From assembly GCA_021825655.1 (NCBI GenBank), contig JAKAGU010000001.1, positions 50,358-114,357 on the forward strand: a stretch of 64,000 nucleotides of DNA. The letters run 5' to 3'. Made by a program: the position numbers and the translations under genes. The notes under the pieces were generated by a model. It ran no database searches. It saw only the letters and a program-made list of their open reading frames with translations, and had not been told where the DNA came from. Shown here in pieces: positions 2,633 to 58,797 of this stretch; position 1 is the stretch's first letter; each line of letters begins with the position of its first letter. Source of the DNA: a bacterium. Its GTDB lineage: Bacteria > Patescibacteriota > Doudnabacteria > UBA920.

Positions 2633-3979
2633 CTATATAAACAGTTTATCCAGAATTAAATCCATCTCCTGTTTGAAGCCGTCTTTATCCTTAACTAAAG
2701 TCTCCATTTTTTCTACTGCATGCATTACAGTCGTGTGGTCACGCCCCCCAAAAAAATCACCAATTGAAGGGAAGGAGCTGTCCAGCTCCCGGCGAATAAG
2801 ATACATGGCTATCTGCCTTGGTTTTACAAATTCTTTTTTTCGCGACTGTTTTACCAGGTCTTCCATAGAGATGTTGTAGAATTCGGCGACCACCTCGGCA
2901 ATTTTTTTCGCTGAGGTGACTTTCTTTTTAGCCCCGACAATACTGGCCAAAATCCCTTTAGCCTGCTCCAAAACCAACCCCCGGTTATCCATTTGTTGAT
3001 AAATCGCCAGGCGGTTAAGTGCCCCTTCCAACTCTCGAACGTTATTTTGGATGTTTTCCGCGATATAAAAGAGGATTTCTTCCGGCATCTGCACCCCGCG
3101 TTTTTCCATTTTAGTGCGTAAAATTGCCATGCGGGTTTCGAGATCGGGCGCTTGGATATCCGCAATCATCCCCCACTCAAACCGGGAGATCAGCCGCTGT
3201 TCTATGGCCGGAATTTCTTTCGGCGGCCGGTCGGAGGTGATGATGATTTGCTTTCCGTTGTCGCGTAATTCGTTGAAAGTATGGAAAAATTCTTCCTGGG
3301 TGCCTTCCTTGCCCGCCAAAAATTGGATATCGTCTATAAGCAAAGCATCCACTTCACGGTAGGCTTTTTTAAAATCATCCATGCGCTTCTGGCTGATAGC
3401 GTTAATATAGTCGTTGGTAAATTTTTCACTTGTAACATATAGAATTTTTTTATGGCTGGATTCCAGAATGCGGTGCCCCACAGCCTGCATTAAATGGGTT
3501 TTACCTAAACCCACCCCGCCGTAAATGAAGAGCGGGTTGTATTGCGTGCCCGGATTTTTTGCCACAGCCTGGCTGGCTGCGTGGGCAAGCTCGTTATTTT
3601 TTCCGATTATCAGGGTTTCAAAAGTGTATTTTGGGTTTAAACCAGAGGTAAAAGCCGAGGGTCTCTCCTTGGTAAGGCCGGCACTCTCGGATTTTTTGAA
3701 CATATTGGTTTGCTGGCTGGCCTGTGTTGTGGGTTGGTTGCCAAGTTGGTATCTAATTTCTTTAATCTCTGGGGCAATCCCTTTCAGGCTTTTAAGCATT
3801 TCTTGGTGGTACTTAGCAGAAATCCAGTCGCGGTTGAAAGCGCTGGGTACGCCGATGATGATATGGTCCGCACCTCTTTCTAGGATGAGTGTGTTCTTAA
3901 ACCAGGTATTAAAGTTGGCCTTGCTCAGTGAAACTTCTAGACTGCCTAAGATTGCTTGCCAGAGCTGCTGATTAGTCAT
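2633..3979 (-). CDS. dnaA: Chromosomal replication initiator DnaA
   Basis: 448 aa with AAA+ Walker A ([10 protein letters not shown]) and the C-terminal DnaA DNA-binding signature. Confidence 0.95.
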
Positions 3980-15887: not shown

Positions 15888-17516
15888 TCAGGAATGCGCA
15901 AAAGCTTGGTTGATCTCGGTTTCTTCCCAGCCCGCCCGCTGCAGTTCTTCCCGGATTTGCTGGTCAGTCAGTTCTACATTTCGGGCCTGTGTGATGAAGT
16001 CCACCAAGTGGGGGTGGGGCAGGTTTAAGGATAAGCGGCTCTGGGCATGCAGCTCTGTTTCCGGCAAAGGCAGGGGCGTGCCCGCGGCCTCCATTTTTTT
16101 AAGCAGCTCGTTTTTATGGTCTTCTTCGGCCTGTAGTTCAATTTCCAAAGCTTGGATTTGCTGCTCATCTTTTTTTAGGCGCCGGTAGAGGTGTTCTAAG
16201 GCCAGCAGGGCCAGGAGGATTAAAAGCAGCCGCCCGCCGACTACAAACCAGGTAAAAGCGTCAACCTTTTTGATGCTGGCCCAGAACTGCTGCCCCGCGC
16301 TGTCCAGGGATGTCCCGGCCGCAATTAAGTTTTCGCAGTTGGTGGTGTAATTGTCGAAGATCTTAGTACTGGTAAAATTTGGGTTTAGTTCCGCCGCTGC
16401 ATCAAAACTCTTCATAGCTTTTTGGCACTGCCGGGTGCGATAGTAGCCCGCAGCCTGTCGGAAGATTTCTGCGTACGGCCCTTCCGTATTGTTGACGTTG
16501 TTCTTTGTCAAAAACTCTTTGGCCAGATTAATAGGGATGGCAAAAGCAAAGTTGTCGCCTTTTTGCCTTAAGGCGTCGCCGGTCTGGAACGTAATAATGC
16601 CGATTACCCGGCCGTCTTTGTCCAAGAGGGGGCCGCCCGAAGAACCTTGGGAAATTTTAGCGTCGGTTTGAAAAATTTTAAACTCTTTGCTCTGGGCGAA
16701 CTTCAGCGCGCTGACCAGCCCTTGGGTGAGGGTGGCTTCGAGCGGGCTGCGGCCGTTGACTTCCGCGGTGGACGGAAAACCAAAGACCAGAATTTTATCA
16801 CCCGTGCTTACTTGGTTGCTGTCTCCCAGCAGTAGGGCCGGCAAGTTGCCCGCCTGGATTTTAATCAGGGCAACGTCCTTTTCGTCCGCGGCAAAATTAT
16901 TATTGGCACTGACTATGCTGGCCTCAAAACCGGTTTTCAATAACGAGGTCAGGTATTCCTGGGAGTCCGAGGGGTTGAGCACAGTGAGTTTGCTGACAAT
17001 ATTAAACTGTACCCGGTTTTTTAATGCTGCCAGGGAGTTTTGGTAAAAGTTATTAAAATTGTCAGCGTCTTTAAAATTTTGAAGCAAGGTTTGGTCGTCG
17101 AGACTGCCGAGTTTGGCTTGGAGCGCATTGTTTAAGAGTTCTTCCAAATAGCTTTCTTTAATGCTCTCTTCCGTGGCCACGTGGGCGTTGGTCAAAATAT
17201 AGCCGTCGGGGTTGACTACAAAGCCGCTGCCGCTCAGGTAGACATCAACTTTTTCCGCTTGTTGTGGCTGGTTGTCGGGAAAAACCAAAGCCGCTGCCGC
17301 CAAGTTTATTTCAAAATTCGGCAAAGTAACCTGGCCGCTGGCATGGTTGATAATCCGGACAATGCTCGGCTTGATCATTTGAGCCAGGTCCTGTTGGTCC
17401 AGCGGCTGGGCCGGGCCAGGCGCTTGAGCCTTTAAGCTGAGGTAGGCAGCCAGGCCGCATAAAAAAACGGCAAAAACCGCCACCAAGAATTTGGAATTGT
17501 ATTTTAGTTTCGTCAT
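15888..17516 (-). CDS. Membrane-anchored trypsin-like (S1C, HtrA-like) serine protease with a C-terminal TM helix and cytoplasmic tail
   Basis: Catalytic motifs GYILTNAHV and DAKISQGSSGGPLL. No PDZ domain is apparent. Start placed at the internal ATG (MTKLKYNSKFLVAVFAVFLCG, a signal anchor). The ORF-track extension up to 17738 is antisense to tRNA genes and is rejected. Confidence 0.7.
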   Translation of the reverse strand: MTKLKYNSKFLVAVFAVFLCGLAAYLSLKAQAPGPAQPLDQQDLAQMIKPSIVRIINHASGQVTLPNFEINLAAAALVFPDNQPQQAEKVDVYLSGSGFVVNPDGYILTNAHVATEESIKESYLEELLNNALQAKLGSLDDQTLLQNFKDADNFNNFYQNSLAALKNRVQFNIVSKLTVLNPSDSQEYLTSLLKTGFEASIVSANNNFAADEKDVALIKIQAGNLPALLLGDSNQVSTGDKILVFGFPSTAEVNGRSPLEATLTQGLVSALKFAQSKEFKIFQTDAKISQGSSGGPLLDKDGRVIGIITFQTGDALRQKGDNFAFAIPINLAKEFLTKNNVNNTEGPYAEIFRQAAGYYRTRQCQKAMKSFDAAAELNPNFTSTKIFDNYTTNCENLIAAGTSLDSAGQQFWASIKKVDAFTWFVVGGRLLLILLALLALEHLYRRLKKDEQQIQALEIELQAEEDHKNELLKKMEAAGTPLPLPETELHAQSRLSLNLPHPHLVDFITQARNVELTDQQIREELQRAGWEETEINQAFAHS

Positions 17517-17621
17517 GTTTTCTTTTTTGCAGTGTAACATAAAGCTGTAGAAAAAGCATCCCGGGGGGCGTTGAAAAAGCCCGCTAAATAAACTATAATA
17601 AGGTGAGCCAGAAAATTTTCG

Positions 17622-17690
17622 GGCGTAAGCTTGGGTTGGTAGAGCGGACGTCTTATACACGTCTGGTCCTAGGCCCGCCCCGTCACCCTT
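17622..17690 (+). pseudogene. Truncated or degenerate copy of tRNA-Ile(UAU): 5' two-thirds retained, no T-arm or acceptor 3' strand
   Basis: About 36 nt (ggttggtagagcggacgtcttatacacgtctggtcc) are identical to the downstream tRNA, and the flanking 5' portion is similar. The 3' part diverges (ctaggcccgccccgtcaccc) and cannot form a T-arm. Confidence 0.5.
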
Positions 17691-17698
17691 TAGTAAAT

Positions 17699-17774
17699 GC
17701 GCGCGTAGCTCAGTTGGTAGAGCGGACGTCTTATACACGTCTGGTCCCAGGTTCGAGTCCTGGCGCGCGCACCA
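17699..17774 (+). tRNA. tRNA-Ile (anticodon UAU), CCA encoded
   Basis: Folded by hand: acceptor gcgcgcg/cgcgcgc, D-arm gctc-agttggta-gagc, anticodon stem gacgt/acgtc, loop cTTATac (U33, anticodon TAT, A37), T-arm ccagg-ttcgagt-cctgg, then ACCA. Confidence 0.8.
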
Positions 17775-17824
17775 ATAACCAACAATTTTGGGTGACTGGG
17801 TGAAAGTCCTAGTACGCCCACCAA

Positions 17825-17850
17825 AAACCCCCGAAAGGTCGGGGGTTTTT
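17825..17850. terminator. Bidirectional intrinsic terminator
   Basis: aaaaaCCCCCGAaaggTCGGGGGttttt between the tRNA-Ile gene and the convergent HAD hydrolase gene. Confidence 0.7.
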
Positions 17851-17851
17851 A

Positions 17852-18445
17852 TTATGCGCTCACTTTGAGTTTTTTGAGAAAAGCTTCGAGCTTATGAACG
17901 TTCTTTTTGTATTGGAACGTGTGCATGCCCAAGCGTTTGGCTGGGATGAGATTTTTTTTCTTGTCGTCGACCAGAATGGTTTGTGCGGGTTTGAGTTTGA
18001 ATGTTTTAATCACGTAGTTATAAATATTCAAATTCGGTTTGCGCATGCCGACTTTGGAAGAATTTACAAAAGGCAGGCTGCCAAAAGTTATTCCGAGTTT
18101 TTTGGCAATAAAAGCGGGCCCGTTTTTGCTGTTGTTGGACAAAATAATGACTTGGTATTTTTGCGCGAGCCGGTTGGCCAGCTTCCAAGTGGGTTTAAAT
18201 AATTTGAAGCCGGTGATGACTTGCCTGATTTGGGTTTCGGCCACCTGGGGCGTGACTTGCTGGCTCAGTAATTTGCAGTATTCTTCAATCGTACATTGGT
18301 TCAAGTCATCCATGCGGCAAATTTTTCGAAAGGCCAGAGCCTGTTTGGCGCTCCAAAGCCGGGAGTATTTGTTTTCAAATTCTTTGGATGTGTCGCTGAC
18401 TAGCACATCGCCAAAGTCAAAAATAATGGCTGTGATATCGGGCAT
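17852..18445 (-). CDS. HAD superfamily hydrolase
   Basis: 197 aa with an N-terminal DxD motif (IIFDFGDVLV) and HAD core motifs. Confidence 0.75.
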   Translation of the reverse strand: MPDITAIIFDFGDVLVSDTSKEFENKYSRLWSAKQALAFRKICRMDDLNQCTIEEYCKLLSQQVTPQVAETQIRQVITGFKLFKPTWKLANRLAQKYQVIILSNNSKNGPAFIAKKLGITFGSLPFVNSSKVGMRKPNLNIYNYVIKTFKLKPAQTILVDDKKKNLIPAKRLGMHTFQYKKNVHKLEAFLKKLKVSA

Positions 18446-37318: not shown

Positions 37319-38875
37319 GTGATACAATATATCATATATGATATATTAACTTTTATTACTATGACTACCCAAAAGATGATTGGCCAGCTAATCTCCAGAC
37401 TCCGCGAACAAAAGGGTCTGACCCAGGCGCAGTTTGCGAGAAGCCTTAAAACCAGCCAGTCCGCCGTGGCCCGCATGGAAAACGGTTTGCAGAACCTGAG
37501 TACGGAAATGCTGGAAAAAATTGGGGACATACTGAAAAAACCCCTGATTGCGCTGGCGGGAGACTCGGTTAATTTAAGGATTGAGGGCGGCCACAAATTG
37601 TCCGGCCGGGTTGCCACCAACACTTCCAAGAACGCCGCCATGGGCCTTTTGGCCGCCAGCTTGTTGAACGCCGGGCAGACTACCTTAAAAAACGTGCCAA
37701 GAATTGAAGAGGTTAACCGGATGCTTGAGGTGCTTTCAAGCATCGGAGTCAGGGCTGAATGGCAGGGCCAGGATTTAAAAATTACACCCCCGAAAAAATT
37801 CAATCTCAAGAACCTAAATGCCGAAGCCGCGGTCAAAACCCGCAGTATTTTAATGCTTATCGGGCCGTTGGTGCATTTGTTTAGGCATTTTAAGTTGCCG
37901 GTTGCCGGCGGCTGCAAGTTGGGTGCGCGCACTATCCGCCCGCATTTATATGCTTTAGAGAAGCTGGGTGTGAATATCCAGACCAGCCACGACCAGTATG
38001 ATATTAGCGTGCAGGGTTTGGCGTCCGCAGAGGTAGTTCTTTATGAAACCGGCGATACGGTAACGGAAAACGCTCTGCTGGCCGCGGCCAAATTGCCGGG
38101 TAGGACCGTTATCAAATATGCCTCCTCGAATTATATGGTCCAGGATGTATGCTTCTTTTTGGAAAAGTTGGGCGTGCGGGTTGAAGGTTTAGGCACTTCC
38201 ACTCTGGTTGTTCATGGCAAGCCGGAAATTAAGGCGGACGTGGAGTACTATTTAAGCGAAGACCCGATTGAGTCCATGCTTTTTTTGTCCATTGCTGCTA
38301 CCACGAATTCCAGCATCACCATTGAGCGCTGCCCTATAGATTTTTTGGAACTGGAACTGCTTAAGCTGGAAAAGATGGGCTTGAAATTCCAAATCCAAAA
38401 ACACTATAAAGCCCGCAACGGCCGGACTAACCTGGTGGATATAAAAACTTTGCCTTCCAAGCTTACGGCTTTGGAAGAAAAGATTCATCCCCTGCCTTAC
38501 CCCGGCATTAACATAGATAACTTGCCGTTTTTTGTCCCAATTGCCACGCAGGCCGAAGGCTCTACCCTGATTCATGATTGGGTCTACGAAAACCGGGCCA
38601 TCTATTATTTGGAATTATCTAAACTTAGGGCCAATATCATCCTGGCCGATCCGCATCGGGTGTACATTGAGGGGCCTACGGAGTTGCGCGCGGCCGAGGT
38701 AATTTGTCCCCCAGCCTTAAGGCCAGCAGCAATTATTCTGATTGGCATGCTGGCGGCCAAAGGCACTTCGGTGTTGCGGAACGTGTACTCCATTTCCCGC
38801 GGCTACGAGGATCTGGTTAACCGGTTAAAAAAACTGGGCGCAAAAATTGAAATCATCAACAGTCTTGGTATATAG
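37319..38875 (+). CDS. murA: UDP-N-acetylglucosamine 1-carboxyvinyltransferase (MurA) with an N-terminal XRE-type helix-turn-helix fusion
   Basis: The likely start is the internal ATG near 37358 (MTTQKMIGQLISRLREQKGLTQAQFARSLKTSQSAVARMENG, an HTH_3/XRE pattern). The EPSP-synthase-fold MurA body begins at LRIEGGHKLSGRVATNTSKNAAMGLLAASLL. The catalytic Cys loop is retained (LPVAGGCKLGARTIRPH). Confidence 0.8.
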   Translation: MIQYIIYDILTFITMTTQKMIGQLISRLREQKGLTQAQFARSLKTSQSAVARMENGLQNLSTEMLEKIGDILKKPLIALAGDSVNLRIEGGHKLSGRVATNTSKNAAMGLLAASLLNAGQTTLKNVPRIEEVNRMLEVLSSIGVRAEWQGQDLKITPPKKFNLKNLNAEAAVKTRSILMLIGPLVHLFRHFKLPVAGGCKLGARTIRPHLYALEKLGVNIQTSHDQYDISVQGLASAEVVLYETGDTVTENALLAAAKLPGRTVIKYASSNYMVQDVCFFLEKLGVRVEGLGTSTLVVHGKPEIKADVEYYLSEDPIESMLFLSIAATTNSSITIERCPIDFLELELLKLEKMGLKFQIQKHYKARNGRTNLVDIKTLPSKLTALEEKIHPLPYPGINIDNLPFFVPIATQAEGSTLIHDWVYENRAIYYLELSKLRANIILADPHRVYIEGPTELRAAEVICPPALRPAAIILIGMLAAKGTSVLRNVYSISRGYEDLVNRLKKLGAKIEIINSLGI

Positions 38876-56340: not shown

Positions 56341-58797
56341 ATGCAAGCTATGGGCACTGACAGACAAAGAAAATTAGCCAAAACTGGTTTTGTAAAGACT
56401 ATGAAAAAGCCTGGTATAAAAAAAATTGTTGAACCAGAAAACGAGGATGACGGCGCGCCGGTTTATTGCAGTCTGGATATTGAAACTACCGGTTTTGATC
56501 CGCTGACTGAAGAGATTTTGGAAGTCGGGTTCGTTTTCTTTAAAGCAACATCCGAGGGCCTGAAGCCGTTTCAGGAGTGGACTCAGGTTTTTTGCCCCAG
56601 CAAGCCGGTCAGTCCGAAAATTCTTGGCTTGACCGGGATTACTCCCAAAGAGCTGGCGGCCGCCCCGCAGTTTAAGGAGTTTAAAGATTTTTTGCAGGAA
56701 AAACTTGGCAATGCGGTGATTGTCGGCCACAACATAGCGTTCGATATTAAATTTTTGGAAAATTTCGGGATTAAGTTTTCTGGGGGCCAGCTGGATACTT
56801 TAGAGCTGGTGCAGTGGCTGCTGCCTTCCCACCATTCGTACAACCTGGAAAACTTGATGCACTTTTTTAAAATCCCTCATGAAGAGGCTCACCGGGCATT
56901 GGCTGACGCCAAAGCCGCGTTGCTGGTTTTGGAAAAACTTCTAGGACTTTATGCCGGGCTGCCCAGCCAAACCAGCGCCAGAATTTTAGAAATTGTCAAA
57001 CCTTTTCATTTTTCCTGGGCGCGGCTGCTTCCGGCTGCGGCCAATTTTAAGCCAAAGGCAGCGGCTTTGGGCAAAAAAAAAGCCCCGGAACGCAAAAAAC
57101 CAGCGAAGGCTGCCGGGGAATTCGAAGCTTTTAAACTTGCTCCGGGGATTTTGTATGACTTTCCTCTGTTTTCGCAGTATGCCGGTTGTTTGCTGGAAAA
57201 ACTAAAAGCCGCAAAACGCAAGAGTTTGCTGGTTGTGCCAAAGAAACAGCAAGTGATGGACATTTGGCGCTCCGGCCAGGCCCAAAGCGTATTTTTACCT
57301 GCTGAAAGTTTTGACCCCGCGCGTTTTGAAGCCATGCTGAATAAGGGCCAGCACACGCCGGAAGAAGCTAAGTTCTTGCTCAAGCTTTTGGTCTGGCAGG
57401 CTACGAATTGGCAACAACAGGGCTTGGGCGATTTAAACCTCACTTTTTTTGGAGGCCAGTTCAAATCCGCCGTTGCCCGGAGCGAGTTTTTGTTGGACGA
57501 AACAGCCAAGGTTTGGGTATGCGACACCCACACTTTTTTATCGCTGAGCCGCAATGGCGGGGCGCTGGCCGAACGCCTGGTCACGGTCATAGGCTTGCCT
57601 GAACTGGAAAACGCTTTAAGCCTGGGAATTAGCCACCGGGTTTCGTGGAGTTTTATCACCTATCTGCTAAAGTCCTATTACAATCCGGAAACTCAGACAG
57701 GCAGCCTAAGCTATGAAGCTACGGTGCAGAACGCCATTAATGAGGCCGATTTATTTTTTGGCTTGGCTAACGCTCTTTTAAAACAGAATCCCGCGGGGTT
57801 TGAATATTTTAAGGTTTTACCCGGCACGGAGCAGGCGGATAATTTTCAAAAGGTGAAACAAGCAGCCGCAAATTACGCTTTGAAATTATTGGAAACAGCG
57901 CAAAGCCTTGAAGCCGAAGCCTTGGCGGACACGGCGCGCAATTTGCAGGCATTTTTTGAAAACGTGCCCAATAGAGTAAAGTGGGTTGAATTGGCAGAGG
58001 GCCGTTGCATTTTTTATGACAATCCGGTGAATTTGAAAGAGCCTATGGAACGGGTAACGGCGGCCTGCGGCCAGTTGTGCTTTGCCGACAGCCTGTCCCA
58101 GCCCAAGGTGGTGGAGCTGTTTTTGTCCCGCTTGGGCCTGGATACTTTAAAAGTTAAAGGGGTACAGGCTGCTGCCCAGACCAGGCGTTTGCTCCAAGGT
58201 GATCTGTTTTCAGGCTGGCTGGGCCGGATAAAAGCCGAATGCCAGCTGCAGGCCAGCGGGCTTTTAGATTCTGAACTTAAGGCCTACCTGCAGCCCAGCA
58301 GCTTGCCTGCTGCGGTCCTGTTTGCCGGTCCCTTACAGGTTAAGGAATTTTATGAGAAGAACTACGAAGATCTCCAGGCGTATGCCAATGTCTTGAGCCA
58401 AAACCATTCCGGAGGCAGTAACAAGCTTTTTAGGAACTTTGAAATTTATCCGGAAAGCATCTTGCTGGCCACAGACAAGCTGATTTTGAAATATTTGACC
58501 GAGTCCGCGGGCAGCGCCTTAGATTTTTTGTCTGTAAAAACTCTGATTTTGGGCCACCTGCCTTTTGAACAGTACACGCACCCCTATTTGGAAGCGGTAG
58601 CAGGCACCTATGAACGGCCGTTTGAACAGTTCAGTCTGCCTCGGGCTGTATACAATTTAATCAGAATTTTACGCTTTTTCTATACTAACAAGCTAAAACA
58701 CGTGGTAATAGCCGACCCTAAGCTTTCTAAGGAATATGCCAGTGCCTTTGTTGCTTTGGTCCAAAAAATCCCGGGTTTTCGGGTTAAAGTGGGTTAA
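56341..58797 (+). CDS. DinG-like protein: N-terminal DEDDh 3'-5' exonuclease domain fused to a Rad3/DinG-like helicase-like domain with degenerate ATPase motifs
   Basis: 818 aa. Exo I DIETTG, Exo II HNIAFDIKFL and Exo III HRALADAKA are intact. The C-terminal ~600 aa resemble the DinG helicase C-region (motif VI-like RILRFFYTNKLKHVVIADPKL, motif V-like AAVLFAGPL) but no Walker A GxGKT/S is found, and WVCDTHTF replaces DEAH. Confidence 0.6.
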   Translation: MQAMGTDRQRKLAKTGFVKTMKKPGIKKIVEPENEDDGAPVYCSLDIETTGFDPLTEEILEVGFVFFKATSEGLKPFQEWTQVFCPSKPVSPKILGLTGITPKELAAAPQFKEFKDFLQEKLGNAVIVGHNIAFDIKFLENFGIKFSGGQLDTLELVQWLLPSHHSYNLENLMHFFKIPHEEAHRALADAKAALLVLEKLLGLYAGLPSQTSARILEIVKPFHFSWARLLPAAANFKPKAAALGKKKAPERKKPAKAAGEFEAFKLAPGILYDFPLFSQYAGCLLEKLKAAKRKSLLVVPKKQQVMDIWRSGQAQSVFLPAESFDPARFEAMLNKGQHTPEEAKFLLKLLVWQATNWQQQGLGDLNLTFFGGQFKSAVARSEFLLDETAKVWVCDTHTFLSLSRNGGALAERLVTVIGLPELENALSLGISHRVSWSFITYLLKSYYNPETQTGSLSYEATVQNAINEADLFFGLANALLKQNPAGFEYFKVLPGTEQADNFQKVKQAAANYALKLLETAQSLEAEALADTARNLQAFFENVPNRVKWVELAEGRCIFYDNPVNLKEPMERVTAACGQLCFADSLSQPKVVELFLSRLGLDTLKVKGVQAAAQTRRLLQGDLFSGWLGRIKAECQLQASGLLDSELKAYLQPSSLPAAVLFAGPLQVKEFYEKNYEDLQAYANVLSQNHSGGSNKLFRNFEIYPESILLATDKLILKYLTESAGSALDFLSVKTLILGHLPFEQYTHPYLEAVAGTYERPFEQFSLPRAVYNLIRILRFFYTNKLKHVVIADPKLSKEYASAFVALVQKIPGFRVKVG

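Follow-up and report, generated by a model that had tools for sequence, protein, structure and literature searches.

A few organisms, among them Mycoplasma mobile, Bifidobacterium, Neorickettsia and Nanoarchaeum, read AUA codons with a tRNA-Ile3 that has the anticodon UAU encoded in its gene (PMC3575796, PMC8450103). This tRNA was reported instead of tilS in nine species that have no tilS (PMC3575796), TAT genes were found in 19 species (PMC4013482), and the UAU type was described from 17 bacterial genomes and from Nanoarchaeum and Korarchaeum (PMC8450103). Fragments of tRNA genes made by the integration of elements have also been documented (PMC9897764). In one case, the tRNA-Thr locus of Caldiarchaeum, a 5' fragment lies upstream of a variant gene, with a recombinase between the two (PMC3293823). 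The locus described here brings together features of two known kinds, the UAU-type AUA decoder and the recombination scar at a tRNA gene. It lies in a 64,000-nucleotide stretch of DNA (the window) from a bacterium of the Doudnabacteria (Patescibacteriota; assembly GCA_021825655.1, contig JAKAGU010000001.1). We think it probable that the locus is a working tRNA-Ile(UAU) gene inside the split remains of the resident gene, which was displaced by this foreign allele.

The tRNA in the window shares with the known tRNA-Ile3 decoders the UAU anticodon in the gene, A73, A at position 37 and the use of AUA. Those cases are isolated losses of tilS, whereas the tRNA in the window belongs to a lineage-wide family found in at least 116 species genomes, mostly from the Candidate Phyla Radiation (CPR). 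The M. mobile decoder also goes with an adaptation of the isoleucyl-tRNA synthetase (Arg865). With the element-derived fragments, the locus has in common a partial copy beside an intact isoacceptor, a breakpoint in a loop, and a 5' fragment of another allele upstream. In contrast to them, its insert is 127-131 nt long and lacks a recombinase, the intact gene is an entire foreign allele instead of a hybrid, and both old halves flank it symmetrically. Like intron-containing, split and permuted tRNA genes (archaeal genes with bulge-helix-bulge motifs and Patescibacteria genes with group I introns; PMC13011429), it is interrupted in a loop and its flanks can re-pair. Unlike them, it has no group I core or known intron signature, the broken copy looks defective, and the "intron" is a complete tRNA that needs no splicing.

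Anatomy of the locus

We found that the intact gene encodes a tRNA-Ile with the anticodon UAU, as the first-pass annotation of the window had read it. ARAGORN called a 76-nt tRNA-Ile with anticodon tat at 17699-17774 on the + strand, and the Rfam tRNA model (RF00005) matched it with 72.2 bits (gathering score 29) over the full model (positions 1-71). The anticodon loop is CTTATAC, with TAT genomically encoded at positions 34-36. The acceptor stem is GCGCGCG/CGCGCGC, the T-stem is CCAGG/CCTGG, the discriminator base is A73, and CCA is encoded. We refer to this inner allele as type B. Compared by sequence reading with the E. coli set of tRNA-Ile identity elements, which is said to go back to Nureki in 1994, type B has A73, C4-G69, U12-A23, C29-G41 and A37, and has C38 instead of A38. 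The type B tRNA is presumed to be a functional AUA decoder.

Upstream of this gene is a partial copy. A direct repeat of 39 nt with one mismatch (17635-17673 and 17713-17751, spacing 78 nt) includes 36 nt that match exactly, far above the chance expectation for the 451-nt region. Weaker homology of the upstream copy reaches 5' to 17621 (GGGCGTA-AGCT) and 3' to 17677. The whole piece, 17621-17677 on the + strand, corresponds to positions 1-53/57 of a second allele, type A (GGGCGTA...TACGCCCACCA), and is colinear up to 17673 with the intact tRNA gene of the closest relative (locus L129, described below). It contains an acceptor 5' strand (GGGCGTA), a decayed D-arm, an anticodon arm with the CTTATAC loop, the variable region, the T-stem 5' strand CTAGG, and CCCG replacing TTCG. 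With Rfam, the upstream copy gave no tRNA call even at E≤10. These results bear out the view that it is a non-functional partial paralogue, and it is a pseudogene piece that we predict to form part of a 5' leader.

The rest of the outer copy is still present, on the other side of the intact gene. A 19-nt sequence on the + strand (17805-17823, AGTCCTAGTACGCCCACCA) is identical at 19/19 positions to the 3' end of the L129 tRNA and differs at 4 from the 3' end of the inner tRNA. It consists of the T-loop nucleotides AGT, the T-stem 3' strand CCTAG, the acceptor 3' strand TACGCCC, and ACCA, and it directly precedes the terminator. When 17621-17677 was joined to 17805-17823, ARAGORN recognized a 76-nt tRNA-Ile(tat) cloverleaf. 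The upstream copy had been described as having lost its T-arm and 3' acceptor strand. This was incorrect: the T-stem 5' strand is still attached, and the 3' T-stem strand, the acceptor strand and CCA are found 131 nt further on, at 17805-17823.

The insert between the two outer pieces is 131 nt long (17674-17804, + strand) and replaces the T-loop sequence TTCG, as determined from the empty/filled comparison with loci L129, L139, L141 and L142. An alternative reading places 127 nt (17678-17804) between T-loop positions 57 and 58. The insert consists of a 25-nt spacer (X), the intact tRNA gene, and a 30-nt spacer (Y). An 11-nt inverted repeat, CCCCGTCACCC at 17678-17688 and GGGTGACTGGG at 17790-17800 (both given on the + strand), encloses the inner tRNA. 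Its arms are 91% complementary (p=0.0035 by shuffling) and are paired in the minimum-free-energy fold.

The damage to the outer copy takes several forms. Between acceptor stem and D stem there is a single nucleotide in place of two, with loss of U8. The copy also has the changes C13T and A14G, and T54-T55 read CC.

The repeat is not an assembly artefact. We found it in four assemblies (L001, L002, L003 and L006), one of which (L002) has a single-nucleotide polymorphism (SNP), G17634T, in the D-loop of the outer 5' piece. The window corresponds to contig DAIENE010000004.1 of GCA_027341245.1. Assemblies with the repeat include a second metagenome-assembled genome (MAG), GCA_021840085.1, with one SNP in the D-loop of the fragment, and ENA assemblies. 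Contigs of short-k assemblies stop at the repeat edges, by arithmetic from their coordinates, as a real 36-nt repeat would cause.

Four related loci have an uninterrupted type A gene

We fetched the orthologous interval from eight related populations through homologues of the adjacent protease. Each of the eight syntenic loci has one tRNA-Ile(UAU) gene at this place, with the same CTTATAC loop and TAT anticodon as in the window. The closest relative is L129, with a protease that is 92% identical, and L139, L141 and L142 have the promoter and leader type of the window (TATAATAAGGTGAG). In L129, L139, L141 and L142, promoter and terminator directly flank an uninterrupted type A gene (GGGCGTATAGCTCAG...CTAGGTTCGAGTCCTAGTACGCCCACCA). 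Colinearity of the window with L129 holds up to 17673 and resumes at 17805; L129 has only TTCG between these points. Conservation of the fragment in relatives had been raised in the first-pass annotation. The same locus does hold the type A sequence in these four relatives; the gene is uninterrupted there.

The inner tRNA is a different allele. Type B and type A differ at 8 nucleotides, all in paired positions: acceptor positions 2, 6 and 7 with 66, 67 and 71, and T-stem position 50 with 64. L130 and L132 have, at this locus, a tRNA identical to the inner one at 76/76 positions. The window pairs with L129 in a neighbor-joining tree of the protease; the sister group of this pair includes L130 and L132, and L139, L141 and L142 split off below. 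Because L129 and the basal clade L139, L141 and L142 have an uninterrupted type A gene, we take type A to be ancestral and the insertion to be derived, and younger than the split between the window lineage and L129. Because the inner allele is common to another clade, we favor lateral acquisition over duplication in place, and recombination from the sister clade is the most likely origin of the type B allele as judged by sequence identity.

The L132 trailer bears a trace of a similar arrangement. Spacer Y together with the outer 3' piece aligned with it without gaps at 27/40 positions (p=0.003 by shuffling). Because of this alignment, we suggest that the L132 lineage once had type B followed by a type A 3' end. 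In two other loci of the sister clade (L131:2665-3000 and L140:1-223), the tRNA-Ile(UAU) gene has a leader of approximately 95 nt with a 7-bp hairpin (CTGCGCG...CGCGCAG) around a CTATAC motif; this hairpin is possibly a decayed tRNA piece.

The allele comparison bears directly on how the two copies arose. They have the same orientation, are spaced by 78 nt and are identical over 36 nucleotides, as expected if the gene had been duplicated in tandem in situ and the upstream copy had then lost its 3' part by deletion. However, the pieces are different alleles, with the 8 differences in paired positions, and the 3' part of the upstream copy sits downstream of the intact gene, so that the copies are nested and not in tandem. 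Furthermore, the inner allele is that of the sister clade, and the nearest relative has the outer allele only. We therefore consider tandem duplication very unlikely. The first-pass annotation had proposed a tandem duplication remnant or a recombination scar: the scar is close to what we found, and the nested layout and allele differences speak against the duplication.

The locus could also be the scar of a site-specific integrase element that entered the T-loop, carried its own tRNA-Ile(UAU) gene, and was later reduced to about 130 nt. T-loops and anticodon loops are said, after Williams in 2002, to be the classic crossover sites of tRNA-targeting integrases, and a breakpoint in a loop is typical of these enzymes. 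The documented tRNA fragments made by element integration (PMC9897764), and the case of a 5' fragment separated from a variant gene by a recombinase (PMC3293823), also count in favor of such an element. On the other hand, the 131-nt insert has no integrase and no open reading frame (ORF), there is no recombinase between the repeats, and the neighbors are housekeeping genes in conserved synteny. In addition, the intact gene is a self-consistent type B, not the host/element hybrid expected from standard integration. The insert flanks and spacers had only chance-level 10-mer matches elsewhere in the window or in the fetched loci, indicating that the insert is not a repeated miniature inverted-repeat transposable element. 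BLAST of 17600-17850 against phages and plasmids gave generic tRNA similarity only, and a scan of viral contigs gave six matches, mostly in tRNA clusters of phages or giant viruses; these results do not support an element-borne source. Taken together, we think that an integrase element is an unlikely explanation.

Transcription signals and predicted fold

A sigma-70-type promoter, TTGAAA-17 nt-TATAAT, is located at 17571-17599 on the + strand, upstream of the outer 5' piece. It matches at 11/12 positions (shuffled sequences averaged 0.3 sites), and the + strand of the region has no other promoter-like site. The syntenic loci (8/8) all keep the TTGAAAAA...TATAAT arrangement. Downstream, a G+C-rich hairpin followed by a T-run (AAAAACCCCCGA-AAGG-TCGGGGGTTTTT, 17823-17850, not assigned to a strand) has 12-nt arms that are 100% complementary and is at the same place in all relatives. 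A simple terminator scan of the + strand did not list this hairpin. It is likely a bidirectional terminator that serves the tRNA transcript and the convergent HAD hydrolase gene.

The inner tRNA has no promoter of its own and is therefore expected to be transcribed from the old promoter. Its precursor would be approximately 240 nt long, with a leader of approximately 92 nt made up mostly of the old 5' piece and a trailer made up partly of the old 3' piece. Cleavage by RNase P and trimming of the 3' end would then free the inner tRNA, with its CCA already encoded. The whole transcript is predicted to fold with -103.9 kcal/mol (z=-5.35) into a tRNA within a tRNA, in which both the acceptor stem and the T-stem of the outer copy are paired, as are the inverted repeat and the inner cloverleaf. 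In this fold, the outer 3' piece (17805-17823) pairs with 17621-17627 and 17669-17673.

This fold raises the question of a functional nested RNA, in which the insert acts as an intron or processing module and both tRNAs are made, or in which the outer halves act as a leader and trailer that control maturation. The z-score and the inverted repeat beyond chance (p=0.0035) are both in its favor, as is L131, in which leader and trailer can form a perfect 14-bp helix (TTCCTGAATTTTCA with TGAAAATTCAGGAA). That tRNA genes of the CPR often have group I introns (PMC13011429) also counts for it. In contrast, even after ideal excision of the insert, the outer copy would have no U8 or A14 and would have a non-canonical T-loop. 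We know of no bacterial pathway that ligates such halves, and nothing that we found points to rejoining of the outer halves; the damage to the outer copy argues against it. With Rfam, no group I intron, other intron or leader family, or second tRNA was detected at E≤10 in 17500-17900. Finally, the arrangement is missing from the closest relatives, and the outer D-loop is polymorphic. We regard a functional nested RNA as the least likely of the explanations considered, with very little to recommend it.

Partial copies around other tRNA-Ile(UAU) genes

Partial copies recur around other genes of this type. We scanned for exact partial copies of at least 12 nt within 400 nt of 114 species-representative tRNA-Ile(UAU) genes. 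All upstream copies (10/10) were 5' parts of the tRNA, and 16/17 downstream copies were 3' parts. The downstream 5' piece in L064 was rejected as a relic; it is a neighboring tRNA-Val gene with D-arm and T-arm sequence in common. In L017, L046 and L085, which have both pieces, the breakpoints coincided within the anticodon loop: the 5' piece ends in CTTA or CTTATA and the 3' piece starts with TATAC. The inner and outer alleles in L017 and L044 differ in the acceptor stem, as in the window. Some relic inserts are shared between species, and other tRNA genes in the fetched loci have repeats of their 3' ends 60-200 nt downstream. No Rfam family was found in the inserts of eight other CPR loci (no intron family at E≤0.05). 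The relics agree with the existing view that fragments of tRNA genes are marks of past recombination at these genes (PMC9897764, PMC3293823); here, however, the inserts are very small, have no recombinase and hold an entire replacement gene.

Several of these loci have individual features. An intact tRNA-Ile(UAU) gene lies between 5' and 3' tRNA-Ile(UAU) pieces in five of them (L017:1180-1390, L044:7570-7810, L046:4250-4600, L048:4240-4480 and L085:5700-5960), mostly with the split in the anticodon loop, and the outer copy in L046 is additionally split in the T-loop by a hairpin-rich stretch of approximately 100 nt. A stretch of approximately 100 nt, with three hairpins, lies in the D-loop of the outer fragment in L062 (4825-4945) and L088 (2320-2437) and is 90% identical between these two species. 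Weaker matches to it were found in L096 (2988-3051) and L068 (1016-1044). It has an apparent compensatory change in the third hairpin and no Rfam match, and the inserts downstream in L023 and L088 have the same end (...tgtgac). Possible identities for the stretch are a small structured insertion element and the relic of an unclassified intron.

Two loci have partial copies in other arrangements. L040 (1133-1972) is a relative of L017 with homologous flanks, in which the tRNA-Ile(UAU) gene is the L017 outer allele in inverted orientation, and a 3' fragment lies inverted approximately 70 nt from the 3' end of the tRNA. This arrangement suggests an inversion between copies. L017 and L040 were considered as a second empty/filled pair and dropped, as the intergenic region of L040 is rearranged. 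On a metagenome contig (L133:12130-12260), a 5' fragment of a different tRNA-Ile(UAU) allele (D-loop, 5' strand of the anticodon stem, and CTTAT) lies approximately 35 nt upstream of an intact gene. A scan of metagenomes with the shared 32-mer yielded six loci, L133 and L135-L137 among them, none of which is nested as in the window.

Repeated 3' ends were seen at other tRNA genes. In L135 (1487-1646), and in the same way in L136 and L137, a tRNA-Leu(UAA) gene is followed by 57 nt of hairpin-rich sequence and then by an exact 19-nt repeat of its own 3' end that starts in the T-loop. Similar 3'-end repeats follow tRNA-Gly(GCC) in L136 and L137 and tRNA-Met in L048 and L067.

Neighboring genes

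The S1C/trypsin-like serine protease gene next to the locus is 15888-17516 on the - strand, with its ATG start at 17516, and encodes 542 amino acids. The ORF (15888-17738, - strand) is longer, with 616 codons, and the peptide YKTSALPT occurs twice in the first 74. These 74 codons (17517-17738, - strand) are antisense to the outer 5' piece and to the initial 40 nt of the inner tRNA. The protease has 542 amino acids in the NCBI annotation of the MAG, and its homologues have 541-542 amino acids at 100% coverage; because these agree, we place the start at 17516. The extension is thus spurious, and the first-pass annotation was right to dismiss it as antisense tRNA sequence. Both the partial tRNA pieces and the antisense extension of the ORF can mislead annotation: the outer pieces should be annotated as pseudogene fragments, and the protease should start at 17516. 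The gene order of the interval is gyrA-HAD-[tRNA]-protease-CofE-like-rsmI; the neighbors are housekeeping genes, and their synteny is conserved. Among named organisms, Doudnabacteria have the nearest relatives of the protease.

Elsewhere in the window, dnaA is at 2633-3979 (- strand), and the replication origin may be near. There are 12 tRNA genes in the window, and the cumulative GC skew climbs over its whole length. A 518-amino-acid protein (37319-38875, + strand) has an N-terminal HTH_3 domain (residues 26-76) and a full EPSP-synthase/MurA-type domain (residues 89-503), which looks like an unusual fusion. A protein of 818 amino acids (56341-58797, + strand) has an RNase_T/DEDDh exonuclease domain in its first 200 residues; the remaining approximately 600 residues had no Pfam match at E≤1e-5.

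AUA decoding in Patescibacteria

AUA codons are in use in the window, where they make up 159/1144 of the Ile codons in long ORFs (9.0 per 1000 codons), and a decoder is therefore needed. No tRNA with a CAT anticodon (ARAGORN) and no ORF with an SGGxDS PP-loop were found in the 64-kb window. A scan for PP-loops in approximately 0.95 Mb of fetched CPR loci found one TilS-like ORF, in L117, and none in the TAT-type loci; only about one would be expected over that length. The ORF in L117 (+ strand) is an N-terminal fragment that resembles TilS (SGGPDS PP-loop, ...GHNLDDQAET...); the 8-kb locus that contains it also has one of four CAT-anticodon tRNAs from the pattern scan. The inner tRNA is probably the sole AUA decoder. 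The mature tRNA would read AUA with a modified or unmodified U34, as in M. mobile.

We found that genes of the UAU type are common in the CPR. Species-representative genomes were scanned for the D-loop and anticodon-loop signature GGTAGAGC-N6-CTYATAC-N6-GGTC, and TAT was present in 116 of the first 120 matches listed, that is, in at least 116 species genomes. The 80 records with titles were mostly MAGs of CPR/Patescibacteria, with a few labeled as DPANN archaea or otherwise, and included Kaiser-, Pacei-, Nomura-, Sacchari-, Beckwith- and Kerfeldbacteria and WWE3. The first-pass annotation had called the UAU type an arrangement of a minority of bacteria. This is true of the literature (9 species, PMC3575796; 17 genomes, PMC8450103) and uninformative here, given at least 116 species genomes that are mostly CPR.

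Published tRNA counts point in the same direction. Table S2 of a 2026 study of complete Patescibacteria genomes (PMC13011429) gives ARAGORN tRNA counts per amino acid, without anticodons, and we took 61 genomes from it. Of these, 37 have at least two tRNAs with Ile anticodons and at most two with CAT, 19 have one Ile and at least three CAT, and 5 are mixed. The Doudnabacteria genome has 2 Ile and 2 CAT. From these per-amino-acid counts, we infer that many CPR classes have Ile(GAU) and Ile(UAU), with CAT only in fMet and Met tRNAs, and that others (for example Saccharimonadia and JAEDAM01) keep the CAU/lysidine system. The two groups (Ile 2/CAT 2 and Ile 1/CAT 3) follow class lines, a point on which PMC13011429 is silent. 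The counts suggest that there are two alternative AUA-decoding systems within Patescibacteria. We found no paper in the searchable literature that links CPR/Patescibacteria with tilS, lysidine or AUA decoding.

Discussion

We propose that the locus records the displacement of a resident tRNA gene by a foreign allele. The ancestor would have had a single tRNA-Ile(UAU) gene, of type A, in the space that separates the protease and HAD genes, preceded by a strong promoter and followed by a terminator. The T-loop of this gene would then have been entered by 127-131 nt of DNA carrying the type B allele, short spacers and the 11-nt inverted repeat. The simplest history is that the nested arrangement arose once and then reached the ancestor of the window. 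A donor that was already nested may have passed the arrangement on by homologous recombination, with the old tRNA halves and the terminator as arms. Transfer of the type B allele would most simply have occurred by recombination of DNA that had been taken up.

Several points weigh against this proposal. A donor with the complete nested locus was not found among the loci, and L132 keeps the 3' side only. Spacer X had no detectable homologue (p of about 0.3-0.4 against the leaders of the sister clade). The relationships of the nine loci depend on one protein tree, and the argument from tRNA counts is indirect, since Table S2 gives numbers per amino acid. Lastly, 3-4 changes have occurred in the D-arm of the outer piece and none in its 36-nt core, which could indicate gene conversion or constraint instead of simple decay.

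It is conceivable, although we put this forward as speculation with doubts of our own, that tRNA genes of the CPR turn over more generally by such a gene-within-gene route. A foreign allele would land in a loop of the resident gene, the dead halves would serve as homology arms that spread the cassette, and polar relics would be left around about one in eight tRNA-Ile(UAU) genes, in a phylum in which whole classes would read AUA without lysidine.

The comparison of empty and filled sites points to replacement of an essential single-copy tRNA gene by a foreign allele that destroyed the old copy on arrival. If so, the locus is a clean example of the exchange of a core translation gene between related uncultivated lineages, and comparable relics recur in the phylum. 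Direct reading of AUA by a UAU tRNA, which has been documented in few genomes, appears to be normal in large parts of Patescibacteria. This bears on how reduced genomes avoid misreading between AUA and AUG and on which tRNA-modification enzymes are dispensable.

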